A stretch of 64,000 nucleotides of DNA from an uncultured Candidatus Saccharibacteria bacterium (GTDB taxonomy: Bacteria > Patescibacteriota > Minisyncoccia > UBA6257 > GWB1-50-10). The notes beneath the pieces were generated by a model. The model was not told the DNA's origin. It saw nothing but the letters and a program-made list of their open reading frames with translations, and searched no databases. Below, piece by piece: positions 943-59,973 of the stretch (position 1 is its first letter; the number at the start of each line of letters is the position of its first letter). The stretch is taken from positions 39,463-103,462 of the forward strand of contig CAYUXY010000002.1 in the NCBI GenBank assembly GCA_964449245.1, read 5' to 3'. A program made the translations under genes and the position numbers.

Positions 943-952
943 ACGCTATATG

Positions 953-1669
953 TTATTTTTTGAAGCCCTCTCTCGCGACAATCCTTCTGTTTACAACAAC
1001 CTCATCTCTGTCTATTTTTCCGTCAACAATATGAATAGTTCTACTGCCGGCTTCCGCAACGTATGATTCATGGGTTACAACAACTATAGTATGTCCCTTC
1101 TCATGTAGCTCCTGAAGAAACCCTAAAATTACACCACCGGATTTTGAATCCAGATTTCCCGTTGGTTCGTCCGCAAAAATTATTTTCGGATCGTTGACAA
1201 GCGCGCGGGCAATCGCAACTCTTTGTTTCTGTCCACCGGAAAGATGCGACGCGGGATAATCAAGCCTGTCGGACAGTCCGACAAGATCAATAACCTCCTT
1301 TGCCTTCTTCTCGCGTCCATCGATTTTTCCTCTGCGATACATAAGAGGTAGCGCAACATTTTCAAGAACAGAAAGTCGTGGTAGGAGATTAAATGACTGA
1401 AATACAAAACCTATTCTATTGTTTCTTATAAATGCGAGCTCATTGTCGGAATACTTTTGTATTTCTTTTCCCTCAAATAAATATCTTCCTCCGGACGGAC
1501 GGTCAAGACAACCGAGAATCTGCATTAAGGTAGATTTGCCGGAACCGGAGGGCCCGACTATAGTTACAAATTCGCCTTCGGTAATAGATATATCTACATC
1601 ATACAGAGCGCGGGTTTCAACTCCATCGTCCTGATAGATTTTTTCAAGTTTTTCTGTTTGTATAAGCAT
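953..1669 (-). CDS. ABC transporter ATP-binding protein (MacB/LolD-like)
   Basis: Walker [13 protein letters not shown] signature [15 protein letters not shown], Walker [13 protein letters not shown], 238 aa. Confidence 0.9.
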
Positions 1670-1684
1670 TATTTCCGGAAAATA

Positions 1685-3232
1685 TTATCGTACGATTATC
1701 GAATCTTTTTCCGACAAACCTCCCGTTATTTCTGTCTTGCCGTCCGAACCCTTAAGACCAACGGTAATTTCAACTCTCTCCGAATCGCCGTTTATTGCCT
1801 TCCACACGAAATATTTTCCATCTTCTGTTTCTATGTTTCGAGTAGGAACGGATAGAACTCCGAGCCGTTTATTCGTCAAAATATCAACATCGGCAGTCAA
1901 TCCGGAAATAATTCTCGCGTCATCTTCTGTAAAACGTATTTTGGTTTTGTATGTGGCTACACCCTCGAGGACCGTCTCCGATAAATCTATTCCTGATACG
2001 ACAGCATCGAACACAACGCCTCTGCCGTACGCATCAAGCGTTACTTTAGCCGTATCTCCAACTTTTACTTTTGCAATATCTGATTCCGTAATATATGCCT
2101 CTATATCAAAATTACCGGCACCGATTATAGATAAGACCGGAGAATTCGCTGAAATTATATTCCCCTCTTCTTCTATTATCTTCGTCACAACTCCGGAAAA
2201 AGGAGCCGTAAGAATTGTTTTCCCATATTGCGCGCGATAATACGCGAGACTTGCTTGCATTTGCTCAACTTTTGCCTCTTCATCGGCCATCTGTTCGGCC
2301 GTAGATCCTGCGCGAATAAGAGCCAGTTCGCTCTCTATTTTTTGCACTGTAATTTTCTGCGAAGAAATCGCCTGTTCCTGTGAACTAATCGATGCATACG
2401 AAGAATTTACATTGGTTCTCGCAGTGTAAACATTTGCCTTATATCCGCTGATCGTGGTTGCAGTAATGCCTTCAGCTACATCAAGAGCATCGAGCGTGCG
2501 AGTGAGATAATCTCGAATGTATGAAAGTTTTTGTTTTCCGGATAAAATGGCTGTCGTAAATTCATCAATTGTAGCATTGTCATCTAACTGCTGAAGTTCG
2601 ACTCTCCACTCATCCAAATAATGGCCGGCGTAATATCGCATCGATTCAACATCGATTTTCGCCTGCATATTAAGAACCGTAAATGTGAATTTGGGATTTG
2701 ATGTGTCGTCATCGGAAAAAAGATCGTCCGTCTTCGTACGAACGGCATCATCGGCTTTTGCATAGGCATCGTTTAATAAATCTTTTGTTGCGCGGAAATA
2801 GTTGTTTAAGTCTTGTTTTGCCTTATCAAGCTCGGCTTGTTTCACGGAAACTTCTTCAGGCCTTGCGCCATTTTTTAATTCCATAAGATTAGCCTCCGCA
2901 GATTTAAGAGTTGCGGCAGCTTTTTCCACTTCAGCCCAAAGATCGGCTCCTTCCAAACGCACGAGAATTGCCCCACGATCTACTTTTTCTCCGACAACCG
3001 GATAAATACGGCTTATTCTTCCGGACTTTTCAAATGCAAGATCTATACTTCTTGTCGGAACAACTTTTCCGGTTACACTAACTTCTTCAACAACATCTCC
3101 AAGCTCGACAGCAACAACTTCTGATTGTTTTTCTTTTCCGCCGGAAACAAGGGAAATAATTATTATAACGACGGCAACCAATACGACTCCTATTATTAAA
3201 GTTTTCTTTTTATTTTTTATTTTCAATTTCAT
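1685..3232 (-). CDS. efflux transporter periplasmic adaptor subunit (HlyD/MacA family)
   Basis: N-terminal TM helix, long coiled-coil segment and C-terminal beta-barrel-like region, 515 aa. Immediately upstream of the ABC ATPase and permease. Confidence 0.8.
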   Translation of the reverse strand: MKLKIKNKKKTLIIGVVLVAVVIIIISLVSGGKEKQSEVVAVELGDVVEEVSVTGKVVPTRSIDLAFEKSGRISRIYPVVGEKVDRGAILVRLEGADLWAEVEKAAATLKSAEANLMELKNGARPEEVSVKQAELDKAKQDLNNYFRATKDLLNDAYAKADDAVRTKTDDLFSDDDTSNPKFTFTVLNMQAKIDVESMRYYAGHYLDEWRVELQQLDDNATIDEFTTAILSGKQKLSYIRDYLTRTLDALDVAEGITATTISGYKANVYTARTNVNSSYASISSQEQAISSQKITVQKIESELALIRAGSTAEQMADEEAKVEQMQASLAYYRAQYGKTILTAPFSGVVTKIIEEEGNIISANSPVLSIIGAGNFDIEAYITESDIAKVKVGDTAKVTLDAYGRGVVFDAVVSGIDLSETVLEGVATYKTKIRFTEDDARIISGLTADVDILTNKRLGVLSVPTRNIETEDGKYFVWKAINGDSERVEITVGLKGSDGKTEITGGLSEKDSIIVR

Positions 3233-9586: not shown

Positions 9587-9973
9587 TTATTTATTTTCTG
9601 TTTTTACTAACGCATCTATTTTTCTCTTTATAGTTGCATCTATTATGGTTTCATCATCAATCACGATTCGCACTCCGGCTATTATATCCGGAACTATTAC
9701 ATATTTTATATCCGATTTTTTTCCAAACGCTTTTTCTATTTTAGACACGGATTCGCGAGACAATTTTCTTGCCGAATATACGACAACTCTTTTGCGTTCG
9801 TTACGAATAGACAATTCGTCTTCCAAATATTCGGTTATTTTTTCGGTTTCTCCTTTATTTCCTAATTGTACGCACATTTTTGCAAATCCTTTTATGATCG
9901 CATCCTGCTTTTTAGGATGCGCGTCTAACAGCGCAAATAGTGCTTTTGAATACAATCGAGGAGAATACTTCAT
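9587..9973 (-). CDS. atpH: F0F1 ATP synthase subunit delta (short)
   Basis: 128 aa, positioned between the b and alpha genes, OSCP-like C-terminal region. Shorter than the canonical ~177 aa. Confidence 0.7.
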   Translation of the reverse strand: MKYSPRLYSKALFALLDAHPKKQDAIIKGFAKMCVQLGNKGETEKITEYLEDELSIRNERKRVVVYSARKLSRESVSKIEKAFGKKSDIKYVIVPDIIAGVRIVIDDETIIDATIKRKIDALVKTENK

Positions 9974-28228: not shown

Positions 28229-28557
28229 AAGAAACTTTTTAGCTGCCCCAATTTCACCGGTGTTTAAAAAGATCCGGCAACTTTTTTTGGTACCGTGCTT
28301 GCGCACGGTATTACAAACCGCTGAAAGTTATCCGCCATTTGAAAATAGATTTCCAAATAAAAAGCGGATTGCTTTCGGCGATGTGTAATCGACTAAATTA
28401 ATTAATCCACGAACAGCTTCCGCTACCCGTGCCTTGTTACGACTTCGTCCGTGTCACCGAGCTTAGGCTGAACCCCTGTTGGAGTTTTCACCCACTCCCG
28501 GCTCCCCTGACGTGACGGGCGGTGAGTACAGGACTCGAGAACGTATTCACCGCGGCG

Positions 28558-28593
<36 letters not shown>

Positions 28594-28835
28594 AGGGCGA
28601 GTTGCAGCCCTCAATCCGAACTGGGGCGGTTTTTGATGGGATTAGCTCCGTCTTACGACTTGGCAACCCATTGTTTCCGCCATTGTAGCATGTGTGTAGC
28701 CCAGGGCGTCAAAGGGCCATGCTGATTTGACGTCGTCCTCGCCTTCCTCCGTCTATAAGACGGCAGTATCCCGTGACACATATAACACGGGAGAAGGGTT
28801 GCGCTCGTTACCCCACTTAAGGGAACACCTCACGG

Positions 28836-28866
<31 letters not shown>

Positions 28867-29121
28867 CCCGCCGTCCTTGCGGACAACAATCCTTTCGGAC
28901 TGTCTTCGTCGGGATTTCAAGCCCTGGTGAGGTGTCTCGTTTACCATCGAATTAAACCACATGCCCCACCGCTTGTGCGAGTCCCCGTCTATTCCTTTGA
29001 GTTTTAAGCTTGCGCTCGTACTTCCCAGGCGGCAGATTTAACGCGTTAGCTACGCCACCCCGAGGGTCGATACTCGAGACAGCTAATCTGCATCGTTTAG
29101 GGCGTGGACTACAAGGGTATC

Positions 29122-29765
29122 TACAATTTTGTTACTGCATAACAAAATTGCAATTTCTAATTTTGAATTTCGAAACTAATCGAAATAAAAATCTAATAAT
29201 TGCAAGCTCTGTTATGGGATGAAATATTTCTATTCATCTCTCTATGTCGCCATAGAGTTCGGCCTATATCTTCTCATCATAATGACGAGTCTGGCGTATA
29301 GTCTCTGAGGCTCCAAATTTACTATAGAAAATTATTCTTGAATCATTGTATAGACGATTCGAAGAATTTCTCAATTTTGATCTCATCGATTGCTTATCAT
29401 TGCTTCTATACAAGATCATTGCTTGATCGATTGATCAATTTTCCTATCAACATAATAAAATTGTTGCCTGCTGATTGTCTGCACCGAAAAGATTTTCACT
29501 CAACAATGAGTACTCTCGGATTCTCAGATTTTCCAGCATATAGCCAGATTATCCCCCGGACGACTTTCCGGAGGGGACTAATGCTCAATGGTACCCTTCC
29601 ACTCCGCGTATTCTTCAATACGCGAGACAATACATTTTTCAAGAAGCTCTCGGAAGTGAAAAAGATTGGTCTTTTGTAAAACAAAAGTTTTTCACTGAGA
29701 GTGCAAACCCGATTTTCCGCTGGAGAAAATCGAGGTTGGTTCTTGAAAATGAATTATCGAGCAAG
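29122..29765 (-). other. ~640-nt intervening sequence inside 16S (between GGATTAGA and GATACCC), ORF-less and highly structured
   Basis: Conserved 16S sequence is contiguous once this block is removed. No homing-endonuclease ORF. Multiple local hairpins. Boundaries are ambiguous by 2 nt. Confidence 0.7.
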
Positions 29766-30335
29766 TCTAATCCTTTTTGCTCCCCACGCTTTCGCGCCTC
29801 AGGGTCAGGAACGTCCCAGCAGAATGCCTTCGCCTTTGGTGTTCCGCACGATATCAACGGATTCCACCCCTACACCGTGCGTTCCATCTGCCTCTAACGC
29901 CCTCTAGTATGATAGTTTCCACGGCAGTTTCGGAGTTGAGCCCCGAGATTTAACCGCAGACTTATCATGCCCCCTACGCGCCCTTTACGCCCAATAAATC
30001 CGGATAACGCTTGTGGCCTTCGTATTACCGCGGCTGCTGGCACGAAGTTTGCAGCCACTTATTCCCGCCGTACTATCAGTCTTGCGACTTTCTCCGGCGG
30101 AAAAGTAGTTTACACACCTAAATGCTTCATCCTACACGCGGCGTCGCTCCATCAGGCTTTCGCCCATTGTGGAATATTCTCGACTGCTGCCTCCCGTAGG
30201 AGTAGGAACCGTATCTCAGTTTCCTCGCTGGGGAACAGGCTCTCACCTCCCCTACCGGTCGTAGTCTTGGTAGGCCATTACCCTACCAACTAACTGATCG
30301 GACCTAAGCCACTCCCAAAGCAACTTGCGTCTTTA

Positions 30336-30432
30336 CCCATCTCCAGTTCACTGAAAACAATTTCCTAAATACAAAGTTTGTAATATTAACATTCTTTGTT
30401 CAAAAAAATGTACTCAGTGAACTGGGGATGGG
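30336..30432 (-). repeat. 97-nt structured hairpin element in 16S V2 helix (copy A)
   Basis: cccatctccagttcactg ... cagtgaactggggatggg. Identical to copy B except for one compensatory base pair. Confidence 0.85.
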
Positions 30433-30515
30433 ACCATCGGGAATTAGTTCGCCTTTCGGCGAATTATGCCCGACTCTGGGGTATGTACTAAGGTGTTACT
30501 AGCTCGTTCGCCACT

Positions 30516-30612
30516 CCCAGCTCCAGTTCACTGAAAACAATTTCCTAAATACAAAGTTTGTAATATTAACATTCTTTGTTCAAAAAAATGTACTCAGTGA
30601 ACTGGGGCTGGG
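30516..30612 (-). repeat. 97-nt structured hairpin element in 16S V1 helix (copy B)
   Basis: cccagctccagttcactg ... cagtgaactggggctggg. Identical interior to copy A. Confidence 0.85.
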
Positions 30613-30764
30613 CGTTCGACTTGCATGCCTTATCCACGCCGCCAGCGTTCATCCTGGACCAGGATCAAATCCTCAAAAAAACAAATTGGGACAACTAAAA
30701 AATTTCTTTATTTTTTCGCTGTTTTAACTATTAAATTGACAAAAAACTTTCCTTTTTCACAGCA

Positions 30765-33424: not shown

Positions 33425-33467
33425 AAGCTCTCGTGAACGTGTTTCGTTTACGAGAGCTATTTTTTTA
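33425..33467 (+). terminator. rho-independent terminator
   Basis: agctctcgtgaacg-(loop)-cgtttacgagagct followed by TTTTTTT. Confidence 0.65.
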
Positions 33468-33786
33468 CAGACGACCGAAGCGGGGCGAAAATCCGCGTCC
33501 CTCGCCGGAAAACAGACGCCATTCCATAACTACTGGTATCGATTTCCCATTGCAAAGCTCCTCCAATCCACCTCAGCAATACGACAATTATATCTCCGTC
33601 TGTGTTAACGAAGAATACATTGTCTCTTTTTAAGAACTGCATTCTTTTTTTAATAAATGCAGCTATAACTGCGAAATTATCAAAGACTTTATCCTGCGAG
33701 AAAAAATCTCTGGCAATTTCACTCTTTTGAAGAATAAAGAAAATGAACCCCTCTTCTTCTTCAAAAAGCTCCAATTGCTTTCCCAT
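33457..33786 (-). CDS. hypothetical protein
   Basis: 109-aa ORF preceded by a perfect SD AAAGGAGGTGA 8 nt before the ATG. No recognised domain. The 3' end overlaps the convergent terminator. Confidence 0.45.
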   Translation of the reverse strand: MGKQLELFEEEEGFIFFILQKSEIARDFFSQDKVFDNFAVIAAFIKKRMQFLKRDNVFFVNTDGDIIVVLLRWIGGALQWEIDTSSYGMASVFRRGTRIFAPLRSSVKK

Positions 33787-33828: not shown

Positions 33829-33862
33829 CAATAAAAAACCGCGATGGTCAATCGCGGTTTTA
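33829..33862 (-). terminator. rho-independent terminator after prfA
   Basis: aaccgcgat-ggtcaa-atcgcggtt followed by a U-run on the minus strand. Confidence 0.55.
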
Positions 33863-34597
33863 TTTCATTTCTCTCGCAGTCTTAATTATCTTATCCATAT
33901 CCCCCTCTAAGGTCTTCTCCACCCCGTAGAATTTTTTGCCCATTCTGTGATCGGTTATCCTGTCTTCGGGGAAATTATACGTCCTTATCTTTTCCGAACG
34001 GTCTGCGGAGCCTATCTGCTCTTTTCGTATCTGGTCAACGGACCCGACAGCTTGCTCTCGAGTTATCTCAAAAAGTTTTGCTCGGAGTATTTCCATAGCC
34101 TTTTCCCTGTTTGCGTGCTGTGTCCTTTCCTCTCGCGAAGAAATGACTATTCCTGTGGGCTTATGGGTAATCCGCACGGCAGTTTCAACTTTATTTACAT
34201 TTTGCCCTCCGGGACCGCCTGAACGGCAAAAAGTTATTTCCAAATCGCTTTCTTTTATATCAACCTCCTTTGCTTCCACGATAGGCAAAATGGCAACGGA
34301 CGCCGTTGATGTGTGAATCCTTCCCTGACGTTCCGTAACAGGCACGCGCTGAACGCGGTGAACTCCTGATTCCTGTTTCATATCGTTATATACCCCCTCG
34401 CCTTTTATTTCTGCGACAAAGGTTTTATACCCCTGCGCGCCGGATTCGGACGCGTCAACTATACCAAATCCCCATCCGCGCTTTACGGCATATCTCTGAT
34501 ACATTCTCGCCAAATCTCCGGCAAAAATCGACGCCTCATCTCCACCCGCCCCGGCTCTGATTTCAACAATAATCTTTTTTATATTTTCAACATTCAT
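33860..34597 (-). CDS. prfA: peptide chain release factor 1-type protein lacking N-terminal domain 1
   Basis: 245 aa. PVT codon-recognition tripeptide ([14 protein letters not shown]) and GGQ motif ([11 protein letters not shown]). Begins directly at the [10 protein letters not shown] region. Confidence 0.8.
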
Positions 34598-34843
34598 AAT
34601 ATTTTATTCCATTTTTTTACACACCGGGGCGAGGCTCGCCGAATTGTTTGCTGTAAGCTGGAGGCGGCCCGCCCCGGCCCTGATTTCAACAATAATCTTT
34701 TTTATATTTTCAACATTCATAATATTTTATTCCATTTTTTTACACACCGGGGCGAGGCTCGCCGAATTGTTTGCTGTAAGCTGGAGGCGGCCCGCCCCGG
34801 CCCTGATTTCAACAATAATCTTTTTTATATTATTCGTATCCAT
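34553..34843. repeat. 123-bp tandem direct repeat (about 2.4 copies) duplicating the prfA start region
   Basis: ATGs at 34597, 34720 and 34843 on the minus strand. Each upstream copy encodes [38 protein letters not shown] then a stop. Confidence 0.85.
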
Positions 34844-34910
34844 ATGATTTATAAATCAATAACACTGATGCTGACGTTCACAAGTACAAAAATTATTATC
34901 CAAAAATCCG

Positions 34911-35789: not shown

Positions 35790-35798
35790 ATTTTTATT

Positions 35799-35959
35799 AT
35801 ATCAGCATCGCACCACTTTATTCGTATCATTCGAATGCATTAGTATATTAGCATCGCACTTATTCTATTCGTATCATTCGTATAAATTCGTATATTAGCA
35901 TTGTGTCTATTCATTCGTATCATTCGCATAAATTCGTATATTAGTATTATACCTATCTT
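35799..35959. repeat. ~47-bp tandem repeat x3.4 immediately upstream of fba
   Basis: Units tagcatcgcac ... attcgtatcattcgYataaattcgtatat repeated head-to-tail. Confidence 0.8.
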
Positions 35960-37211
35960 ACATTTCAAAATATCCCTTTAATAAATAATCTTTCATATAC
36001 CGTTCGAGTTCTTCTTCGCTAAAATATTCCATAAATATTTTGTTCCACAATGCCTCACCATGATGATAAAGATATTTTATAAGCTCCTTCTGTTTTACAA
36101 GAGACATTACGGTATCGACAAGATTAAAACTTACAAGCGCATCTTTCTCCTTATTGGAGCTGAAATACCCGCCAACCCAGTCGAGATCCGCCCAAAATTC
36201 AAGATCGTCTCCAAGACCATCTATGCTGTTTCCAAATGCAATCAGATCCTTCTCCGCTCTCATCCAATGAAGCGCCTCCGGATTCACGCGCGGTACAAAA
36301 AGTCGCGGGTCATTTTCGTCATCTTTGGCGAGATATCTTTGAACGACGAGCCATACGGATTTTTCCCCGTTTTGAGTATGCATTTCCGGAACATCTCCGC
36401 GGAGAAGCGACACGAAGTTTGAAGAAAAAGTCGCGGGAACTTTGGCAATTTCTCTGAATATGTCGGAATAAAACGGCACCTCGTGAATATAGTGAAATAT
36501 CAAACTGATCATTCTCAAAAGCTCGCCGGAAATACCGAGCGAAACCGGAATAATAAAAATCACTCCCATTTCTTTTAAATGGCTGATATTGTGCCATTTT
36601 TTCTTTACAAATTTCTCCGCTACGCCATTCCATTTTGAAGGTATGGCAAGCGCACGCACTTCACGTTCTTCAAAGTCGTCCGGAGAAAGAGATTCATATT
36701 GCTTAAAAAAAACGCCGTTAAGCCACTCCGCGCTTTCAATAAAGCGAAGCGCGCTCATTATTTCAAACAAGTCTTCTCTGCATAACATTTCATCAACCGA
36801 ATCATATCCAAGAAATTTCATAATTTCCTTCGGGGGTTCGTTGCGCAAAAATTCTCGGGCCTTCTCTTCTTTGATAAAAAATCCTTTTGGATTGCCGGCG
36901 ACATCAAGCGCGCGTTTAAGCAAATGAGAACAATCTTCGCAGTCTCCGGATTTTGGAAAGTTCAGAGCTTCGGAGATTTTTTTATCGTCAGCGTCTATCT
37001 TTGAAATAAGCGCGTTATATATGCTATGGGCATCCGCAGAAAAAGAGAGTCCCAATGCGGACAGCCTGTCAGCCATTTTTGCATCGTTATTATCGGCGAT
37101 ATTTTTAAAAATTCCATTTTTACCGGAAATTAAAGAAAGCCTGCGTTCGGCTTTTTCCAAAAAAGATTTGTCCGTTCTTAAAATTTTCGCAAGCTTTTCA
37201 ATATGATCCAT
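35958..37211 (-). CDS. hypothetical protein (417 aa)
   Basis: Long ORF with no recognisable motif. Compositionally similar to neighbouring genes. Confidence 0.55.
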   Translation of the reverse strand: MDHIEKLAKILRTDKSFLEKAERRLSLISGKNGIFKNIADNNDAKMADRLSALGLSFSADAHSIYNALISKIDADDKKISEALNFPKSGDCEDCSHLLKRALDVAGNPKGFFIKEEKAREFLRNEPPKEIMKFLGYDSVDEMLCREDLFEIMSALRFIESAEWLNGVFFKQYESLSPDDFEEREVRALAIPSKWNGVAEKFVKKKWHNISHLKEMGVIFIIPVSLGISGELLRMISLIFHYIHEVPFYSDIFREIAKVPATFSSNFVSLLRGDVPEMHTQNGEKSVWLVVQRYLAKDDENDPRLFVPRVNPEALHWMRAEKDLIAFGNSIDGLGDDLEFWADLDWVGGYFSSNKEKDALVSFNLVDTVMSLVKQKELIKYLYHHGEALWNKIFMEYFSEEELERYMKDYLLKGYFEM

Positions 37212-38788: not shown

Positions 38789-38868
38789 CATTCAATCGAA
38801 ATTCGAAATTAGATAAATCGAAATTTACCGTATTTTTTTCTACATACTATATACAATATTCTATATAC
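38789..38868. repeat. intergenic repeat module A plus motif B (actatatacaatattctatatac) overlapping the NUDIX stop codon
   Basis: cattcaatcgaaattcgaaattagataaatcgaaattt ... ctacatactatatacaatattctatatac. Confidence 0.75.
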
Positions 38869-39331
38869 TCATCTTTTCTTCTTCCAACGTATGTTCCAGC
38901 ACTACATCATCATCGCCAAACAAAAATTTGCCTCTAAATTTCTTTCCCGCGAGAAAAAGCGACATCCAATATATATCGCTCGGCCACATATCGGAAAATG
39001 GAATTTCCGCAATATTAAACCATTTTGGCGCCATTTCGTCAGATTCAACCGGCTCGCCCTCAAATTTGTCCGAATAAAAGATGTGCATCTCGAGAGTTTC
39101 CCCTTCTCTATTTTTTGATTCGAATTCAAGCACTCCTCGTTTTTCATAAGATAAAATCTTTATTCCGGATTCTTCAAGCATCTCGCGGACACACGTTTCT
39201 TCAACTGTTTCGTTTTCCTCTACCTTTCCGCCAAATCCATTCCACCTGCCAGCGCCGAAACGGACCTTTTTCATCCCGAGTAAAATTTCATTACCCCGCC
39301 TGATTAGACACAATGTAAAAACTTTTTTCAT
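38861..39331 (-). CDS. NUDIX hydrolase (MutT-like)
   Basis: Nudix box GGKVEENETVEETCVREMLEESG. 156 aa. Confidence 0.85.
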   Translation of the reverse strand: MKKVFTLCLIRRGNEILLGMKKVRFGAGRWNGFGGKVEENETVEETCVREMLEESGIKILSYEKRGVLEFESKNREGETLEMHIFYSDKFEGEPVESDEMAPKWFNIAEIPFSDMWPSDIYWMSLFLAGKKFRGKFLFGDDDVVLEHTLEEEKMSI

Positions 39332-39422
39332 ATTAGTATTTCGTATTTTTGTCTTTCTTCTTTTCTCTTTTAACTTACGTATTTAGAAATTTGCATTTTT
39401 ACTTTAAACTTTCATCTTTTCT

Positions 39423-39451
39423 CCCTACGGGAGATCTGCCGTAGGCAGACA
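39423..39451. repeat. palindromic core tccctacgggagatctgccgtaggcagac inside an AAAG/CTTTT-rich array (reverse-complement copy at 60499..60530)
   Basis: Two nested palindromes, tctccc-tac-gggaga and tctgcc-gta-ggcaga. Exact reverse complement occurs 21 kb away. Confidence 0.8.
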
Positions 39452-39558
39452 ACTTTATATTTCTCCCATTCAATCATTAATACATTCAATCGAAATTCGA
39501 AATTAAGTAATTAGAAATTATTTCTCCTGCATACTATATACAACATTCTATATACCAT

Positions 39559-40074
39559 TTACTTTCTTTTGAATATACCTACGGCTATTCCTATCTCCTC
39601 CTGAATTCCCTTAACACAATCGTAGTTTTTAATCTCTTCTTCATTTACCCACGCGAAATCGGTAAATGCGCCCTCTTCAGGGCGAACTTCGCCGGATTTG
39701 TATTTCACAGCAAGTTTTATAAGAACTACAGGAATCCCGTCAGGACGCACAAACGCAACGCTATTTATATAAACAAACTCGTCTTTTATCTCCACTCCTG
39801 CCTCTTCCTTTATTTCTCGTTTCAAAAGTTCTTCGACGGCGTTTTCAAAATCAAAAACATCGCCATTCATTCTCGTTGGCTTCGATAAATCAAGGTCTTT
39901 CCACTCAAGCTTTCCGCCCGGAACACAATATTTCCCCGGATGCACTTTTTCCGTTTCGCTTCTTTTTAAAATCAAACTTCTCCCGTCGCTCTCACGATAA
40001 ATAACCGCGTTTGCGACGAAATAAAAAAGTTTATTTTCTTTTGCGTTTTCAAGACTTATTTTCTCTACCGTCAT
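39559..40074 (-). CDS. NUDIX hydrolase
   Basis: GGKLEWKD ... REIKEEAGVEI Nudix box. 171 aa. Confidence 0.85.
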   Translation of the reverse strand: MTVEKISLENAKENKLFYFVANAVIYRESDGRSLILKRSETEKVHPGKYCVPGGKLEWKDLDLSKPTRMNGDVFDFENAVEELLKREIKEEAGVEIKDEFVYINSVAFVRPDGIPVVLIKLAVKYKSGEVRPEEGAFTDFAWVNEEEIKNYDCVKGIQEEIGIAVGIFKRK

Positions 40075-40088
40075 AGTTTTAAAATTAT

Positions 40089-40538
40089 TTATGGAATATA
40101 AAATAAATTTTTCTTATAGTTTTCAACCATCATTGCACTCGGAAAATACATAGGGCTTGGCAAATCGTCAACATCAAACCAACACCATTCGACTATCTCA
40201 TCCGGTTCCATAATTTGTGGCTCTCCGGAGAATTTATCCGAAAAAAGTCCTACGGTCACAAAATGCGCGTGTTCATTTTTGCAATTATTCACGCAAAACA
40301 CTTTTATTTCATCCAAATGAAGTCCTGTTTCTTCGAGCACTTCACGTTTAGCTCCGTCTTCGAAAGATTCGCCAAAATCCATCTTCCCGCCGGGCATTGT
40401 CCACGTTCCTTCTCCTCGCAACTCCGAGCTCGCCTTTTCGGCGTCAGAATGACGCCTTCCGAGCAATATTTTCCCGTCACGCATTACCATAACACCAAAC
40501 CCAGCTTTTACTATTTTCTTTTGTATTTCATTATCCAT
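40089..40538 (-). CDS. NUDIX hydrolase
   Basis: PGGKMDFGESFEDGAKREVLEETGL Nudix box. 149 aa. Confidence 0.85.
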   Translation of the reverse strand: MDNEIQKKIVKAGFGVMVMRDGKILLGRRHSDAEKASSELRGEGTWTMPGGKMDFGESFEDGAKREVLEETGLHLDEIKVFCVNNCKNEHAHFVTVGLFSDKFSGEPQIMEPDEIVEWCWFDVDDLPSPMYFPSAMMVENYKKNLFYIP

Positions 40539-40573
40539 AAGACTATTATTTTATATTTAAAAATAACCCGCCA

Positions 40574-41002
40574 CTATATTTTATCTTTATATAATTCGAA
40601 AAACTTGGGCAATTGGGAATGTAACGGTGTTGGTAGCGTGTCAAAGGTGAACCATTTTACATCTTCAAATTTATGAGGCTCTCCATTTTTTACCTTCTCT
40701 CTGTTGATAAACACCTTAAAATCAAGCGCTATCCAGTGAGTCCTCTTGCCATCGTGCTCCCTATGAACATCCCTATATCCCAAAAATTCGTAATCTAAAA
40801 CATCCGTGCAATATTCTTCTTTAATTTCTTTTTTTAATGTATTTTCGACGGTATCACCAAACTCAAGCGCGCCAGCTCCTATATCCCATGCATTATGCTC
40901 ATCACGACAATTTGCGCTTCTTTTTGCCAACAACACATTTGCCTTTCCGTCATGACAAAGATATACAACAGTTACTCCGGTATAGTCTTCTCCTTTTTTC
41001 AT
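40574..41002 (-). CDS. NUDIX hydrolase
   Basis: GAGALEFGDTVENTLKKEIKEEY Nudix box. 142 aa. Shares the start context acaaaaatacgaaatactaatATGAAAAAAG with the gene at 39331. Confidence 0.8.
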   Translation of the reverse strand: MKKGEDYTGVTVVYLCHDGKANVLLAKRSANCRDEHNAWDIGAGALEFGDTVENTLKKEIKEEYCTDVLDYEFLGYRDVHREHDGKRTHWIALDFKVFINREKVKNGEPHKFEDVKWFTFDTLPTPLHSQLPKFFELYKDKI

Positions 41003-41482: not shown

Positions 41483-41944
41483 TTATTTCTGGCCATAAAA
41501 TCTTTCGTGCAATTCCGGACATTCATTCTTAAAAATTTCCTCCATTGGATCTTTCTTTTTCACTTGCTTAAATTGAATGCCTCTTTTTGACCCGCCTTTC
41601 ACTCTCAAAATAAAACTACTGACTAATTTAGAGCACTCGGTTGCTAAATTATTTAAATGCTTAAATGTTTCAATACTTAAATAACCGACATCTAACGCCG
41701 CATACAACTGCGCGCGAACTTCACCAGCCGACCCTTTTGCAATATATAAATAGTTGATAAATCCAGCCGTAGTTCCGCTTTCAAATCCCTCTGCGATATT
41801 ACTCATCACCGAAACCGACGCTCTCTGAATTTGGTCTTTAAAACCCGCGTCATTACAATTTTTGAAAGCATTATAGACATCGCGGGTTAATTCTCTGGAT
41901 TTTTGCCAACAAATAAGGTCTTCAAATTTTTCAATCGTTGCCAT
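41483..41944 (-). CDS. four-helix-bundle protein (23S rRNA intervening-sequence protein family)
   Basis: FEDLICWQKSRELTRDVY ... SNIAEGF ... YLYIAKGSAGEV matches the TIGR02436-type pattern. 153 aa. Confidence 0.75.
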   Translation of the reverse strand: MATIEKFEDLICWQKSRELTRDVYNAFKNCNDAGFKDQIQRASVSVMSNIAEGFESGTTAGFINYLYIAKGSAGEVRAQLYAALDVGYLSIETFKHLNNLATECSKLVSSFILRVKGGSKRGIQFKQVKKKDPMEEIFKNECPELHERFYGQK

Positions 41945-49746: not shown

Positions 49747-51450
49747 TTACGCCACTTCCGCTTGATAACATTCTTTGCAATAAATAATCGGAGCATTTTT
49801 CTCTAAAAATGTAGTCCTAAACGAAACTCCACACTTGGAACATTCGCGCTCTATTGTTTTGCAATAATTGATATTTTCAATCCACCTGTTTACCTTTTTC
49901 ATAATCCTACACATAGGACACTCCCGCGGAAGAGGCAAGTTCATTCTTTTTAAAAACTGAAATTCCATACCTATTATGCGAAATCCATTACCGCAGGCGG
50001 AACATTTAATAACTTCGTTTAAGATTGATTCGTCCGCGTCTTTTATATTATCAGGCAATTCATCGAAATTTTTAGTTATCTCGTGCTCTTTTTGCGGTCT
50101 GTCTATCCACCGCAATCCTTCATTTTCCGACTGCTCTCTTGTCTTCGGAAAAAATAAACTCCCAAAAGAATCGTTGTATGGAACGTCGGATAATTCCATA
50201 GGGAAAAATTCGCCGTATTTATAAATATTTCCCTTTTTATCCGTATATGGCATTTCGTCCATATGTTTTATTATTTTTTCGCGAAGAGAATTGAATTCGT
50301 CCTCTGAATATCTTTTGTTCAATATGCAATACTCTCCTTTGTTTACCGATACGCAACCAAAATGATTTTTGCCTCCATTAGACAATCTCGAATATTCGGC
50401 ATCGGATTGACCTAATCCGCTTTCCCAGCAAAATTTTATTCCAGAAATGTTTTCTCCAACGTTTACGGAATCATAAGAACGGCTCATATTATTTCCCCAG
50501 CTTGAAATGTCGTATGATTCGCTTGACGGATTATCATTTACCAAAAACAAGAATTTTGAATCCTGCGAAAAACTCGTTTCGAAGCCTTCCATCACATTTT
50601 TCGAATTGAAAATATAATTTCCGGTTGAATTAACGCAAAATCTGTCATAAAGCCCTTTATACGGGTATTTTTTATTGTTTTCTTCGGCTTGTTTTTTAAC
50701 AGCTATATATTGAGAATATGAACCTAAATCAATTTCCGATAGCTTTCTAAAATATTCTTCTTTTGATAATTGTTCATTAAAGAAGACGTACTTTTTGTTT
50801 TTTATATTTGCAGAAGCAAAACAATTTTGGCACCCAACCGCATCGCGGGTAAACAGGCATTCCATAGATTCTGTAGTGTGATCAACGCCAATACATTTAT
50901 TGTCTTGAAAACTGTGTATTGAATCGAAACACAGCTCCGAATCTGAGGTTATGGAACAATCAAAAACCTCTTTATTGTCAAAATGGTGAAAGCCATAAGC
51001 GCAATTTTCATCCCTGTCGCTATGAAAAATAAGATACGAATTTTTCTGATTCCCTACGTGGTTCGTATATGGAGAGGTGGCAATGGACGCGATGTCTGTA
51101 GAAAGCGCGGACAAGGGAGCCTCGTGCAACAACTCATTAAATTGTTCGAAAAACGGGCGCGAAAAATCATAGTCTCTTCCGTAATCATACGGGCTCCAAT
51201 TATCGCTCCACCAACATTTTGCGCAATAAACTACGTATTTTGCGTCAGGCGGATATCGCGAAACAACACTTTTTTTGCATAAATCGCAGTCTCGTTTATA
51301 AAGACGAAATGTGTTTAAAAAAGCCAATCTCCGCTCTAATCTGCACATCGGGCAAAACGTCGGTGGAGGAACGTCAATCTTCTGATAAAAAGCTTCATCG
51401 TCAGGCGTGATTTCAAAATCTGTTTTACAATTTTGGCACGGCTTATTCAT
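49747..51450 (-). CDS. cysteine-rich protein with terminal zinc-ribbon-like modules and internal repeats (paralog 1), unknown function
   Basis: 567 aa. N-terminal CQNCKTDFEITPDDEAFYQKIDVPPPTFCPMCRLERRL. The C-terminus repeats this CxxC ... CPxCR module. Internal GCxxxxNKxYCIxNxxYSxEEY repeats. Confidence 0.7.
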   Translation of the reverse strand: MNKPCQNCKTDFEITPDDEAFYQKIDVPPPTFCPMCRLERRLAFLNTFRLYKRDCDLCKKSVVSRYPPDAKYVVYCAKCWWSDNWSPYDYGRDYDFSRPFFEQFNELLHEAPLSALSTDIASIATSPYTNHVGNQKNSYLIFHSDRDENCAYGFHHFDNKEVFDCSITSDSELCFDSIHSFQDNKCIGVDHTTESMECLFTRDAVGCQNCFASANIKNKKYVFFNEQLSKEEYFRKLSEIDLGSYSQYIAVKKQAEENNKKYPYKGLYDRFCVNSTGNYIFNSKNVMEGFETSFSQDSKFLFLVNDNPSSESYDISSWGNNMSRSYDSVNVGENISGIKFCWESGLGQSDAEYSRLSNGGKNHFGCVSVNKGEYCILNKRYSEDEFNSLREKIIKHMDEMPYTDKKGNIYKYGEFFPMELSDVPYNDSFGSLFFPKTREQSENEGLRWIDRPQKEHEITKNFDELPDNIKDADESILNEVIKCSACGNGFRIIGMEFQFLKRMNLPLPRECPMCRIMKKVNRWIENINYCKTIERECSKCGVSFRTTFLEKNAPIIYCKECYQAEVA

Positions 51451-51504
51451 AATTTCTAATTACTTAATTTCGAATTTCGATTGAATGAATCAATGATTGA
51501 ATGG
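51451..51504. repeat. repeat module A (reverse orientation) directly abutting the ATG of the Cys-rich gene
   Basis: aatttctaattacttaatttcgaatttcgattgaatgaatcaatgattgaatgg. A similar copy lies at 53321..53378. Confidence 0.75.
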
Positions 51505-51598
51505 AAAAAGTATAAAGTTGTAAGACAAAAGATGAAAGTAAGAATGCAACTATTTTTCTCTGTTTTTTTTCTTTTAACTTTAAACTTTCGTCTTTTGT

Positions 51599-53320
51599 CT
51601 AACTGATTTCATTTTGGTAACACTGTTCACAATATATGACTTCCGGTCTCTCTGGAGCGTAGGATGTCATTATTTCCGCACTACATTTTGCGCAATTACG
51701 TTTCCACAATTTAAGAGGATTCCTTTGCATCAAACGCGAAAAATAACGGCAATTAGAGCACTTTCTCGGAAGCGGGATATTCATTCTTCTGTAAAATTGG
51801 AGTTCCTGCGGGACGATTCTGAAAGCCTTTGTGCAATTGCATCGTTCTTTCATATTTGGATTATCTTTATCATCCCACGTTTCGCACTGTATTATTTCTT
51901 TCAAAATATCATCGGTTACTGTGGAAATTTCTTCCGGTAAATCTTCCCACGATTTAGTCGGAACATAATCCTTATCCTTAATTTCTTTCCAAACATATCC
52001 CCGCTTTAATGCTTCGTCTTTTGAAAGATAAAAATAGTCCTGCGCCGCGCTTATGTTATACGGCAAAAATGATGCTTCCGGTGGGAAAAACTCGCCGAAT
52101 TTATATGTTTTTCCAAAACTCAAAAACGGCATATCGTCCATATGTTTTCTTATTTCCGGCAATAATTTTTCATACTCTTCTTTTGAATACTGTTTGTTCA
52201 AAATGCAGTATTGTTTATTCTTAAGCCCCACACATCCGAAAAGATACGAGGACGAATAACAATTATCACAATACGTTAAATCGTGGCACGATTCCCACGA
52301 TTCGTTAACGAATCTGATATTTGAGAGATTATATCCGCAATTCGCGGTTTCATACACAAGCTCCGCATTTCTTCCCCAGTACGAATAATCCATACAATCT
52401 TTACCCTCAATAATGGACAACAAATTCTTTCCATGCTCAACATCTCGTAATTGATAGGAATTGGACACATCATTGCAATTTGTAAGCCAATTTCCCGAGG
52501 AATTCGTGCAATTTATAGCAACCGTTGATCTGCGCGGATAATTCATTGCAAATTTTTTAAAACGTGCGCGCATCTTTTCAACACCCATTGCCGTATTGAG
52601 ATGAAAATCACGCAGTTTTATTTCATAATCCTCTTTGGAATATTGTTCATTGAATATACAATATTGCTTATTTAAAAGACTGGCGCATCCGATACAATTC
52701 GAGCAATTTCTGCAATCAAATAGAAAAAATGAATCCCTGCACTGCCTGCATTCCTGCAGATATTTGGACCCATAGCATTCGAACGCGTCTATACTGCCAA
52801 ACACGAGTTCGGATTGATGAACATTGAAGCAATCCATACAATCTCTTGATTCCCAAAGATTGTACGAGTAGCTCGAATTTTCATTATAATTCGCCCTGAT
52901 TATGAGGTAGCAACCTTTGTTATAACTCGCGCGGTTGCAAAATTCATTTCCTGCCTGATCGCCCTGAATCGTTCTCTCCGCTCTCGGAACACGAGCCTTC
53001 AATTCCCTAAACTGCTGGAAAAACGGTTTTGAAAAATCATAATCTTTTCCATATGAAATCGGATCCCAATTGTCGCTTCTGTAGCAATCCAAACAATAAA
53101 CCGGATACTCTGAGCCGGTGTCGTGCGTAGAAATTATTTTCTTTCCGCAAAGTGAACAAGTATTGCCGTATAAATATCTCTCCGCGCAAAAAGAAAGCCT
53201 CCGCTCAAATCTGCACGTCGGGCAAAATGTCGGCGGAGGAACATCAATCTTCTGATAAAAAGACTCATCATCGGGAGTGATTTCAAAATCAGCATTACAG
53301 TTCTGACACAGCTTATTCAT
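51599..53320 (-). CDS. cysteine-rich protein, tandem paralog 2 of the 49747..51450 gene
   Basis: 573 aa. About 60% identical in the N-terminal 100 aa (MNKLCQNCNADFEITPDDESFYQKIDVPPPTFCPTCRFERRL). Same internal repeats. Confidence 0.7.
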   Translation of the reverse strand: MNKLCQNCNADFEITPDDESFYQKIDVPPPTFCPTCRFERRLSFCAERYLYGNTCSLCGKKIISTHDTGSEYPVYCLDCYRSDNWDPISYGKDYDFSKPFFQQFRELKARVPRAERTIQGDQAGNEFCNRASYNKGCYLIIRANYNENSSYSYNLWESRDCMDCFNVHQSELVFGSIDAFECYGSKYLQECRQCRDSFFLFDCRNCSNCIGCASLLNKQYCIFNEQYSKEDYEIKLRDFHLNTAMGVEKMRARFKKFAMNYPRRSTVAINCTNSSGNWLTNCNDVSNSYQLRDVEHGKNLLSIIEGKDCMDYSYWGRNAELVYETANCGYNLSNIRFVNESWESCHDLTYCDNCYSSSYLFGCVGLKNKQYCILNKQYSKEEYEKLLPEIRKHMDDMPFLSFGKTYKFGEFFPPEASFLPYNISAAQDYFYLSKDEALKRGYVWKEIKDKDYVPTKSWEDLPEEISTVTDDILKEIIQCETWDDKDNPNMKERCNCTKAFRIVPQELQFYRRMNIPLPRKCSNCRYFSRLMQRNPLKLWKRNCAKCSAEIMTSYAPERPEVIYCEQCYQNEIS

Positions 53321-57216: not shown

Positions 57217-59973
57217 CTATACCGCAGGGCCTATCGGTTTCGTAATGCCATTAAAAATCGGAGTTTTTGAAAACTCACCGTTTACAAATCTCGCGCGGAG
57301 TATTTCCCCTATCGTAGCATTTCCCGAAACTTCATTGGGAGACATATTTATAGATTTCATAAAGTTAACCGCCTTCACATCGGCATCTTTATTCCAAACT
57401 TCCCACATCTTGCTCGCTTTTGTGTTAAAGAATCTATCAACTCCTGCATCATCCATTTTTGTAATAGACTTCACTGAATCAATAAATTGCGTTTCGTTTG
57501 CATTAAACGTCTGTTCAAGTTCAAAAAAGTTAGTGTTCAGCCTTGCAAGAGTCTTTGCGTCCTCTGCCGAAAATTCACTCGCGGGTATATTTTTCAAATT
57601 TTCATATTGAACGACAACATCTCTTATTCCTTGACTATATAAAACATTTTCTTGCTCGGTAAGAGAAAGTGAGGAAAAACTTTTTGCATTGCGTTCCAAA
57701 TCATTCGCGGTCTTTTCAAAAAGAGTCATCATTTGCTCGTGTTCTAAAATCGGAGACGCCTCTACCGCGATTTCGGGTTCATTGTTCAAAATCGGAATAC
57801 TCGGATCGGATTGATGTCCATAAACCGTACCTGCCCGCACTTCTTCTATGTTATCCTTGCCGTCAATCACAAATTTATCGGAAACATCTTCGGAAGAATA
57901 ATCTTTAAGATTATACGTTGTTCCGTCTGTATCCACAGACTCGCTTGAGACGTCGGAAGATACGTCGTGCGTATATTCATAAGTTCTTTCAAGCGGAATG
58001 TTTCCTCCCGACGGTTTGCCGTCAATAAATTCGCGGACAGATACTTCGCCGTTTGAGTCGTGCGTAATTACATAAGCAGGGTTCCCCTCTTCGCCTTCCG
58101 GACCTAAATCGAGAACGCGAACTTCGGTTCCTTCCGCCGGATTTATATATTCATTATCTACGGCGATATTGTATGCTTCTTTTCCGGACCAAGCGTGCAC
58201 TGCGGACGCGTCCGACGGATCCCCCTCATACCCCCATTCCTTCGGATTCACCTCAAGCTGACGCTGAATCGCGTGCGTTATCCCTTCTCCCTTGCCAACC
58301 GTTGCGCGGTCAATCATTTCCGGAGTAATACTAATTTTTGGGCTCACTACTCCGGTATTCTCGAATGATAAATGTGGAGATACTGCAGCCTTCGGGTTCG
58401 GAATCAACACGTCCGAATCGTGAACCTTCATCGGGTCATAGGCATCAGCCGAGCTTTCAACATTTATTTTCGGAGTAATAAAAGGATGGCCTGCCGTATC
58501 GACAGTTGTCGAGTTCGGAGGAGCATAATCCTGCTTATACATTCCAGAATGTACTTCCGGAGTGTGGATTGGAGCGGACGGAAAATGAACGGAATCCGCC
58601 AAATTCATAACGCCCTTGGAAATAAGGTCTCCGCCATATACACCGACACGGCTTCCCAAAAGTCCGGCGAGTATCGTTCCAAGCGTCCTGTTTGCCTTAT
58701 ACCATTTTTCTTGTTTTTTGAGTTTAGAAAGATATTGCTCGCTTAAGGCGATATTTTTGTCGGCGACATCTTTCAAAATTTTATTTCTTTCAAATTCGGA
58801 AGTTGTATCTACCGCGTGTAAAAGATCATCCGATACATCTTCTATCGCCTTTGTTTCAGTTCTTTCCGTAAGCTTTTCTCTATCGTGCTTAAGCGCCTTC
58901 TCGGCAAGGGGTTGAAATATTTTTTTAGAAAGAAGATAACCAAACTCTCCGCCAACAAGAGCTCTTACTACTTTGATTCCCACAAACCCAGCGCCTCCTA
59001 CACCAAGCGCAACAACGCCGGGAAACGCGAGCGCCATTCCGCCTCCGATAATTGCGGCGGTAAGCGCAGTGCGAGTATTTCTATTCATTTTAAAATATCC
59101 GCCGACAAGCTTACTTTCCGCGAGAGCCTCGCCTGTTCGTTTGAAAAATCTGCCAATACGACCCCCCTTCGGATCAATAGCCTCTTCCATTTTTACCCTC
59201 TCGTCCTGCCAGCGCATCATTTCAGCATTTATAAGTTTCATCGAATCAACTTCGATTTTCTGAACTTTATTTTCAAAACCACTGTCTCTCCCTTCGGCTT
59301 CCGCCTTGCTTAATTCCGTTTTTGTATATGAAATTTTAAATTCACGGAGCTTGTCTCTGTATTTATCTTCTAAAACAGCTCTCTGCCCGCGTAACTCTAA
59401 TCGCGATTTATCATTTTCGAGCTTTGCTTCTGGAGATTTATCAGCATTATATTTCTCATCCGCGATTCTCATTTTTTCGGCAAGCAAACGCATTTCGTTT
59501 CTCGTCTCCGCAACTTTCGCCGCAGTCTCTATCTCGGACATTGAAAATGCCTTATTCCTTAACGCTGCTACTATATTTTCTTTTGTTGGATCTACTCCTT
59601 CAGGAAAACCGCTCGGAATTCTTTTTTGAGTCAAAAAAGAATCGGCAACAATATCAATTTCATCGCTACTCAAAACGCGCCCATGCAATTCGTCATAAAG
59701 TTTTTTGACTATTTCTCTATTTTCTTCTTTATTCGGATCTATTCCTTTACTTTTTGCAATAGCGAATGTGGCACCAAATACATCCCGTTTAGTTAACGTT
59801 CCGGATAGAATTGATGCGCATGCCTTTGAATTCGCAGCATCTAATTGATCCGGTTTGTGCTTACTTGCATCAAAACCCAAAAGAACTTCGGAAGCAAACC
59901 CGAGTTCCTTATCCGGCTCTTCGTGTGAATTTTCTTGTTCGGGCGATGCGCCTTTTTGATCAGGATTTTCCAT
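57217..59973 (-). CDS. large hypothetical protein (918 aa) with acidic N-terminal region, coiled coils and central Gly/Ala-rich TM hairpin
   Basis: Long uninterrupted ORF. TM segment ALTAAIIGGGMALAFPGVVALGVGGAGFVGI. No recognisable catalytic motif. Confidence 0.6.
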   Translation of the reverse strand: MENPDQKGASPEQENSHEEPDKELGFASEVLLGFDASKHKPDQLDAANSKACASILSGTLTKRDVFGATFAIAKSKGIDPNKEENREIVKKLYDELHGRVLSSDEIDIVADSFLTQKRIPSGFPEGVDPTKENIVAALRNKAFSMSEIETAAKVAETRNEMRLLAEKMRIADEKYNADKSPEAKLENDKSRLELRGQRAVLEDKYRDKLREFKISYTKTELSKAEAEGRDSGFENKVQKIEVDSMKLINAEMMRWQDERVKMEEAIDPKGGRIGRFFKRTGEALAESKLVGGYFKMNRNTRTALTAAIIGGGMALAFPGVVALGVGGAGFVGIKVVRALVGGEFGYLLSKKIFQPLAEKALKHDREKLTERTETKAIEDVSDDLLHAVDTTSEFERNKILKDVADKNIALSEQYLSKLKKQEKWYKANRTLGTILAGLLGSRVGVYGGDLISKGVMNLADSVHFPSAPIHTPEVHSGMYKQDYAPPNSTTVDTAGHPFITPKINVESSADAYDPMKVHDSDVLIPNPKAAVSPHLSFENTGVVSPKISITPEMIDRATVGKGEGITHAIQRQLEVNPKEWGYEGDPSDASAVHAWSGKEAYNIAVDNEYINPAEGTEVRVLDLGPEGEEGNPAYVITHDSNGEVSVREFIDGKPSGGNIPLERTYEYTHDVSSDVSSESVDTDGTTYNLKDYSSEDVSDKFVIDGKDNIEEVRAGTVYGHQSDPSIPILNNEPEIAVEASPILEHEQMMTLFEKTANDLERNAKSFSSLSLTEQENVLYSQGIRDVVVQYENLKNIPASEFSAEDAKTLARLNTNFFELEQTFNANETQFIDSVKSITKMDDAGVDRFFNTKASKMWEVWNKDADVKAVNFMKSINMSPNEVSGNATIGEILRARFVNGEFSKTPIFNGITKPIGPAV

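Follow-up and report, generated by a model that had tools for sequence, protein, structure and literature searches.

A release factor RF1 without domain 1 and a recent tandem repeat at its start in a Patescibacteria contig

Organization of the RF1 locus

We analysed a 64,000-nt stretch of DNA (the window) from a metagenome-assembled contig of Patescibacteria (CAYUXY010000002.1, assembly GCA_964449245.1). The window contains on its minus strand a gene for release factor 1 (RF1, prfA) of 245 aa, and the start of this gene lies in a tandem repeat with a 123-nt period. Upstream of RF1 are genes for PfkB, a hypothetical protein and fructose-bisphosphate aldolase (FBA), and downstream are an SLT-domain gene and the genes for L25 and L31. 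An earlier note on this DNA, made from the sequence alone, had drawn attention to the short RF1 and to the repeat, and both are confirmed. The gene and its motifs are located as follows.

33860..34597, minus strand: RF1 gene, 245 aa, domains 2-4 only, intact (open reading frame (ORF) with Pfam, NCBIfam and structure alignment)
34334..34342, minus strand: PVT motif of RF1, codons 86-88 (motif position)
34202..34210, minus strand: GGQ motif of RF1, codons 130-132 (motif position)

The RF1 protein consists of domains 2, 3 and 4

The RF-1 domain (PF00472) was complete on the 245-aa protein (136.5 bits), and the PCRF domain (PF03462, 149.6 bits) matched at profile positions 100-194 of 194 only. The NCBIfam prfA equivalogs (TIGR00019 / NF001859) aligned from profile position 101/110 to the end. 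With 359.4 bits (cutoff 400) and 354.7 bits (cutoff 423.25) both equivalog cutoffs were missed, because domain 1 is absent. Other release factor profiles gave 228.6 bits (prfB), 77.4 bits (prfH, cutoff 166.65) and 58 bits (ArfB, cutoff 100), and the ArfB profile covered only residues 109-144 of a protein that has a codon-recognition domain besides. The top structure match was RF1 of Thermotoga maritima (2fvo/1rq0, E = 1e-79). When aligned to solved structures, residues 8-239 corresponded to residues 110-342 of Escherichia coli RF1 and 106-339 of Thermus thermophilus RF1, and the N-terminal helical domain 1 (approximately residues 1-105; about 105-110 residues) was absent. Therefore, from the Pfam, NCBIfam, structure and motif results, the protein is an RF1 of domains 2, 3 and 4 only, which bears out the earlier description of an RF1-type factor that lacks domain 1 and has PVT and GGQ.

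In E. coli, domain 1 of RF1 makes contact with the L11 N-terminal domain and with RF3, and so bridges RF1 to both (PMC3677378). The 245-aa protein would terminate translation at UAA and UAG without the contact to L11 and RF3 that domain 1 makes. By synteny, it appears to be the housekeeping RF1 orthologue.

A free-standing domain-1 ORF was not found in the window with domain-1 queries from 10 RF1s. The best hit (E 0.03) was inside an unrelated gene, and a split RF1 was rejected on this result. A second release factor paralogue was not found in the 64-kb window by tblastn, and neither such a paralogue nor a domain-1-like ORF adjoined RF1 in 85 fetched loci carrying RF1. Among the window ORFs scanned we did not find prmC, prfB or prfC, in line with the earlier remark that no HemK/prmC gene is adjacent. 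The long ORFs of the window end in TAA (28), TAG (11) and TGA (7). Therefore, the standard code is used, and RF2 is expected elsewhere in the genome.

Loss of domain 1 is a lineage trait

The earlier note had proposed to check whether a truncated RF1 is common in the lineage, and the answer is a clear yes. The best 120 homologue clusters (90% identity) were all 235-291 aa long and 72-84% identical to the window protein. The taxa named among them were all Patescibacteria (Jorgensen-, Zambryski- and Brennerbacteria), and two were named just "bacterium". The few longer entries among these 120 clusters begin, by read-through, at an in-frame ATG upstream of what is otherwise the same start. Many short RF1 clusters carried just the generic NCBI name "PCRF domain-containing protein". 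In five orthologues from species-representative genomes (L007, L008, L009, L013 and L015), an in-frame stop lies 2-4 codons upstream of the ATG, and thus a hidden N-terminal extension is impossible there.

The length of RF1 within Patescibacteria falls in steps, from 341-348 aa in some lineages to 319-329 aa in RAAC4_OD1, Kaiserbacteria and Minisyncoccia, 267-270 aa in Nomurabacteria and 241-249 aa in the group that includes the window gene. In the same search, RF1s of Cyanobacteria, Bacteroidota and Ignavibacteria were 352-370 aa. All residues missing across this series mapped to domain 1 in the alignment. In a library of 50%-cluster representatives just two clearly short RF1s were present, as such a library cannot separate out the truncated clade, RF1 being too conserved. 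The relative L001 shares the gene order PfkB-hypothetical-FBA-RF1-SLT-L25-L31 with the window, and L002 keeps the order from FBA to L31, with bAvd and a reverse transcriptase in place of PfkB-hypothetical upstream. Against four orthologues, dN of RF1 was 0.14-0.22; only dN is given, because synonymous sites were saturated and dN/dS could not be calculated.

One could suppose that the 245-aa gene is decaying while a full-length prfA works elsewhere, given that just 64 kb of the genome were inspected and that the NCBIfam prfA equivalog cutoffs were missed. However, more than 120 distinct clusters share the same length and intact PVT and GGQ, synteny is conserved, dN is far below saturated dS, stops stand just upstream of the orthologous ATGs, and there was no domain-1-like ORF or release factor paralogue in the window or next to RF1 in the 85 loci. 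We give such decay hardly any credence. The short RF1 is common across the lineage, and the truncation is therefore neither the remnant of a pseudogene nor tied to the repeat. By these comparisons the truncation is real and clade-wide and looks functional, and a pseudogene is very unlikely. Domain 1 would have been lost in the clade by reductive evolution, and the parts kept would be superdomain 2/4, which reads the stop codon (PVT), and domain 3, which is catalytic (GGQ). No description of this RF1 truncation was found in the searchable literature. The release factors without an N-terminal domain that are mentioned in PMC6514570 are PrfH and ArfB only.

The RF1 start is repeated in tandem

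Tandem Repeats Finder reported a repeat at 34545..34831 with a period of 123, 2.3 copies and 99% matches over a 287-nt span. Direct comparison resolved it on the minus strand into core(a0)-Y-core(a1)-Y-core(a2), followed by the remainder of RF1. The features of this region are listed in the direction of transcription. The term uORF is used for an upstream ORF.

34844..34910, minus strand: native spacer, 67 nt, from the FBA stop to the ancestral RF1 start (the spacer of L001 is 49 nt)
34791..34831, minus strand: core a0, 41 nt, part of the putative ancestral start at ATG 34843 (direct comparison; N-terminus and 5' DNA like L002 and P0006)
34709..34790, minus strand: Y copy 1, 82 nt, equal to X plus ATGAATGTTGAA (direct comparison)
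34668..34708, minus strand: core a1, 41/41 nt identical to a0 (direct comparison)
34586..34667, minus strand: Y copy 2, identical to copy 1; gives the presumed working ATG 34597 and the first four RF1 codons
34545..34585, minus strand: core a2, within the presumed working RF1; AGA at 34556 versus AGG at 34679 and 34802, synonymous
34727..34843, minus strand: uORF1, 38 codons, the ancestral RF1 start fused to 20 unrelated codons (ORF list)
34604..34720, minus strand: uORF2, 38 codons, MNVEN...KKME (ORF list)
34747..34800, minus strand: GC-rich hairpin 1, about 15 bp, core end and X start (CCGGGGCGGGCCGCC) with GGCGAGCCTCGCCCCGG, 22-nt loop
34624..34677, minus strand: GC-rich hairpin 2, same structure in the second unit

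The core (AATATAAAAAAG...GCCGGGGCGGG) has 41 nt; it begins with the final base of codon 4, and its last nucleotide is base 2 of codon 18. Y (82 nt) is made of a 70-nt sequence, X, followed by ATGAATGTTGAA, and the X-core-X junction is spelled by the 56-mer GAAAATATAAAAAAGATTATTGTTGAAATCAGGGCCGGGGCGGGCCGCCT. The sole mismatch in the 287-nt repeated span is the synonymous one in the core at 34556. In 100 shuffles, the 48-nt core of the unit never matched by chance.

That a 123-bp tandem repeat recreates the RF1 start was correctly noted before (Tandem Repeats Finder, direct comparison), as were the ATGs at 34597, 34720 and 34843 and the 38-aa ORFs that end in TAA 6 nt before the next ATG (ORF list). 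For uORF1 and uORF2 these next ATGs are 34720 and 34597, respectively. Both 38-codon ORFs consist of 18 RF1 residues and then RLQLTANNSASLAPVCKKME. An exact look-up of the two 38-aa peptides and of a 34-aa edge-cut version found none on record. Other details of the earlier note had to be corrected. The first copy is not a member of the repeat from its start, as it begins MDTNN and the other two begin MNVEN, and its first 12 nt and the sequence upstream are outside the repeat. The copies do not share their first 19 codons, since their proteins agree up to residue 18 (..AGAG) only and their DNA over 53 nt. The unit does not duplicate promoter-proximal upstream sequence, since its 70-nt spacer is unrelated to the native FBA-RF1 spacer.

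A folded unit had -34.6 kcal/mol with a z of only -1.9 against shuffles, and the z of the whole leader was -0.98. Thus neither the unit nor the whole leader was significantly more stable than shuffles in RNA folds. The best Rfam match was Termite-leu at 18.4 bits, below its gathering score of 51, and was rejected. A diversity-generating retroelement (DGR) with template and variable repeats, a CRISPR-like repeat-spacer array and translational bypassing were dismissed on anatomy, because the units stand in tandem and hardly differ, the spacers do not differ at all and the third copy starts from an ATG of its own.

Assembly support for the repeat

The repeat comes from a metagenome-assembled contig, its 123-nt unit is about a read length, and contigs do not resolve its copy number. 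An assembler might thus have threaded a loop or merged strain variants that are not found together on any one molecule, for example a single Y with A/G at 34556. An exact match to the aldolase protein also occurs in the Logan assemblies (k = 31) of run SRR8925737, on a contig seen in two samples. One Logan contig (L004, 1046 nt, SRR8925737) ends at ...ATGGATACGAATAATATAAAAAAGATTATTGTTGAAATCAGG, the last 31-mer unique to a0. Another (L005, 3941 nt, SRR8925738) starts with AAATATAAAAAAGATTATTGTTGAAATCAGAGCC..., the first 31-mer unique to a2, and spans RF1 to L31. In simulations of the k = 31 graph, both contig ends were reproduced by two or three tandem units and also by a single unit with an A/G polymorphism at 34556, whose unitigs end like L004 and start like L005. 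A single unit alone, or a mix of no insert and a single unit, failed to reproduce them.

The polymorphic single-unit model predicts that the L005-like piece merges after 61 nt, or that there is no break if the bubble is popped, but L005 runs for 3941 nt from its exact start. The same break occurs in two runs, the X-core-X adjacency needs a k-mer of about 55 nt and would hence come from real reads at the usual final k, and a single Y would still leave a core-Y-core insertion. Because the two contigs break exactly at the loop boundaries, invention by the assembler is unlikely. Because the breaks are in two runs, the reads support a tandem loop, although the number of units is not countable from contigs. 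An artefact such as the single-Y mixture is disfavoured, and we regard it as unlikely.

The repeat is absent from relatives

None of 83 related loci had a direct repeat of at least 25 nt across the RF1 start, and the same script recovered the repeat of the window, which is thus particular to this genome. The closest syntenic loci (L001, L002 and L003) have a single RF1 start. The first copy resembles this start. It reads MDTNN, ATGGATACG..., and matches orthologues with MDTSE, ATGGACACG...; the N-termini of relatives (MDTSE..., MTDTQN...) and their 5' DNA (ATGGACACGAGC...) are like a0 (ATGGATACGAAT...) and unlike the MNVEN copies. The a0 start is 67 nt past the aldolase stop versus 49 nt in L001, an orthologous distance from FBA. 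Judged from these resemblances, the ancestral start is the upstream-most ATG, 34843 (MDTNN), now cut off from the gene body. As a separate observation, L015 (Candidatus Liptonbacteria Unc5) has a long tandem array at 2201..2802, whose copies recur about every 78 nt and are 82-90% identical. It lies about 200 nt upstream of the short RF1 and has no overlap with the RF1 start.

We also searched for the source of Y. X and Y were not found elsewhere in the window (up to 3 mismatches; blastn-short), and exact 21-30-mers of X/Y had no match in collections of genomes, metagenomes and viral contigs, of which the genome set apparently lacks the source genome. Y was not found in the RF1 upstream regions of relatives. 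Smith-Waterman comparison with shuffles showed nothing above chance between Y and the RF1 gene, the native spacer (both orientations) or the rest of the window, where a single marginal match fell, near 9700, in low-complexity sequence rich in A/T. With scores at chance level, we rejected the idea that Y derives from local sequence by divergence or inversion. No further copies of X/Y were found, and thus there is no evidence for a repeated mobile element.

Y might still be the scar of an integrative element with its attachment site over RF1 codons 5-18, which carried a replacement 5' end (promoter, ATG and first codons). The body of the element would since have been deleted and the scar then duplicated. 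Direct 41-nt repeats flank Y like attL/attR cores, Y ends the old frame with a stop and offers a new start in frame, and just downstream of RF1, at a place that is empty in L001 and L002, lies a 109-aa ORFan that is specific to the strain and is preceded by a strong promoter-like site of its own. Yet the neighbourhood scanned showed no integrase or other gene of a mobile element, Y is just 82 nt, X had no other copy in the window nor an exact match in the three public collections, and three successive events are required. We consider such a scar quite unlikely.

The array could also be a functional leader. Two uORFs, possibly variable in number, would couple RF1 synthesis to termination efficiency: termination at the uORF UAA would be needed for reinitiation, and alternative GC hairpins of core and X would modulate access to the start. 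This would be autogenous control, with a logic loosely analogous to the prfB frameshift. Consistent with it, each uORF stops exactly 6 nt short of the following ATG, with frames that stay open over 38 codons, the 3' arm of X can pair with the upstream or the downstream core, and the variant persists in the assembled population, as seen in two sequencing runs. However, the array is in none of the 83 related loci and none of the three closest syntenic loci. The units are near-identical, and therefore there was no time for selection to shape the array. As UAA, the stop of both uORFs, is read by RF2 as well as by RF1, RF1 would not be sensed specifically. Fold stability is like that of shuffles (z -1.9 for the unit, -0.98 for the whole leader), and there is no Rfam match. 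In sum, the relatives, the RNA families and the folds showed none of the marks of a conserved leader or cis-regulatory RNA. A functional leader is therefore decidedly improbable, and less probable still is its strongest form, a new autogenous control in which a minimal RF1 without domain 1 would be made only if ribosomes on a copy-number-variable uORF leader terminate and reinitiate at the UAA stops 6 nt ahead of each AUG.

The earlier note had left the origin open between a leader-peptide array, a recent recombination product and an assembly artefact. The recombination product is favoured by the absence from 83 loci and the one synonymous difference, the Logan contig ends speak against the artefact, and the leader array had no comparative support.

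Proposed history of the locus

We think it likely that the locus combines two independent things, an ordinary, clade-typical working RF1 and a recent, tolerated structural variant at its 5' end. From its similarities, the gene is most likely the ordinary working RF1 of a Parcubacteria-type member of Patescibacteria, or the Candidate Phyla Radiation (CPR). The array has a defined layout, is young (one synonymous difference), is absent from relatives and has an intact third copy. It is probably a tolerated and transient variant rather than an evolved regulator.

The following history could account for the array. After codon 18 of the ancestral gene (start 34843), Y would have been inserted together with a second 41-nt core (codons 5-18). 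Y would supply both the TAA that closes the upstream frame and a new ATG with four codons in frame with the duplicated 41 nt, so that the gene was rebuilt downstream. Unequal recombination between the 41-nt cores would then have added a second unit of Y plus 41 nt, giving core-Y-core-Y-core. The ancestral start and the middle copy would now head two 38-codon ORFs with no evident function, and RF1 would be translated from the third ATG, 34597. Ribosomes might reach this ATG by reinitiating 6 nt past each uORF stop. Alternatively, they might initiate there independently, in an A/T-rich context without a Shine-Dalgarno sequence, as is also found directly upstream of RF1 in its orthologues.

Several points weigh against the reading of a working RF1 with a tolerated variant. 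The insertion step is a reconstruction, since the source of Y had no match in the searches. The evidence for the array comes from contigs only; its copy number would be 2 or more, and the population may be heterogeneous. Two translated uORFs and a 15-bp GC hairpin before a presumably essential gene should be costly. The persistence of the array could mean selection, or the metagenome-assembled genome could have caught a minority or transient allele. The view of the genome is 64 kb for a second prfA, prfB, prfC and prmC, and the function of the 245-aa RF1 is deduced from sequence conservation alone.

Neighbouring genes and other features of the window

Two promoter- or terminator-like features flank the RF1 transcription direction.

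34920->34892, minus strand: weak promoter-like site (at the native spacer)
33835..33861, minus strand: terminator-like hairpin and T run directly after the RF1 stop codon

The 109-aa ORFan lies between RF1 and the SLT-domain gene (33457..33786, minus strand) and had no Pfam, NCBIfam or PHROG match. It is preceded by a near-consensus promoter-like site (TTGACC-17-TATAAT, 33851->33823) and a strong Shine-Dalgarno sequence. The gap at the matching position is 87 nt in L001 and 17 nt in L002, and thus the ORFan is a second strain-specific insertion next to RF1. On the other side of RF1, a 417-aa protein (35958..37211, minus strand) between PfkB and the aldolase also had no Pfam, NCBIfam or PHROGs match; L001 has it at the same position, with 411 aa. 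The spacer between its gene and the aldolase gene contains a 46-nt tandem repeat (35798..35956, 3.4 copies, 82% matches). In L002 (GCA_027423625.1, DAIBZC010000005.1), a bAvd-like gene and a reverse transcriptase gene occupy 1..1648, directly upstream of aldolase-RF1. They are a diversity-generating-retroelement pair; the window has PfkB and the 417-aa gene there.

Farther away, the 16S rRNA gene (28395..30680, minus strand) spans 2286 nt versus a 1533-nt model. It contains a group I intron (29240..29629, 65 bits) and additional sequence besides, as CPR rRNA genes with insertions typically do. At 38861..41002 and 41483..41944 (minus strand), four consecutive NUDIX-domain genes are followed by a 23S rRNA intervening-sequence protein gene. 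Large ORFs of 567, 573 and 918 aa at 49747..53320 and 57217..59973 (minus strand) had no NCBIfam match at E <= 1e-5.

Significance of the short RF1 and the repeat

The truncation is the more interesting half of the finding, and the appeal of the tandem array is more limited. In a large group of Patescibacteria, termination appears to be carried out by an RF1 entirely without domain 1. Together with the intermediate truncations in other Patescibacteria, this makes a deletion series, produced by nature, in the RF1 region that touches L11 and RF3. It can be predicted that such organisms lack RF3 or use it differently, and that the 245-aa protein releases peptides without RF3 stimulation. The array would be an insertion and duplication caught in the act at the 5' end of a presumably essential gene. 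RF1 would survive the insertion because the insert rebuilds an in-frame start, and annotation calls for caution because the ancestral start is now a decoy. If the leader reading were true, the array would be a new autogenous control of a release factor, in a clade that would terminate without the bridge from RF1 domain 1 to L11 and RF3.

Comparison with known systems

PrfH (RFH, TIGR03072) is a known release factor homologue without the N-terminal domain. The window protein differs from it in scoring 77.4 bits against a cutoff of 166.65, compared with 359 for prfA, and in keeping a genuine PVT. Moreover, PrfH pairs with RtcB, while the window RF1 adjoins FBA and the 109-aa ORFan. ArfB consists of the GGQ domain alone and a C-terminal tail, and the window protein differs in having a codon-recognition domain.

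The array is like the +1 frameshift of prfB in that a short frame stands at the start of a release factor gene and its termination precedes synthesis of the factor (PMC12421855). In the window, however, the uORFs are separate and have their own ATGs, and the RF1 frame is uninterrupted, with no recoding. Furthermore, the uORF stops are UAA, which is not factor-specific, and the arrangement is in 0 of 83 relatives.

An ordinary tandem duplication arises by unequal recombination between short direct repeats. The array is similar to such duplications in its head-to-tail core-Y-core-Y-core order and near-identical units. Three marks of a tandem duplication are present, namely the head-to-tail order, the high identity and support outside one assembly, from the Logan contig ends. 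It differs in its first step, core-Y-core with an 82-nt Y that restores an in-frame start, which is unexplained by simple duplication.

Compared with canonical RF1 (prfA), the window protein lacks the whole of domain 1, which contacts L11 and RF3. It is similar in that its domains 2-4 match solved structures over their full length, it has GGQ and a PVT of the RF1-type PxT kind, and it scores far better on RF1 than on RF2 profiles.

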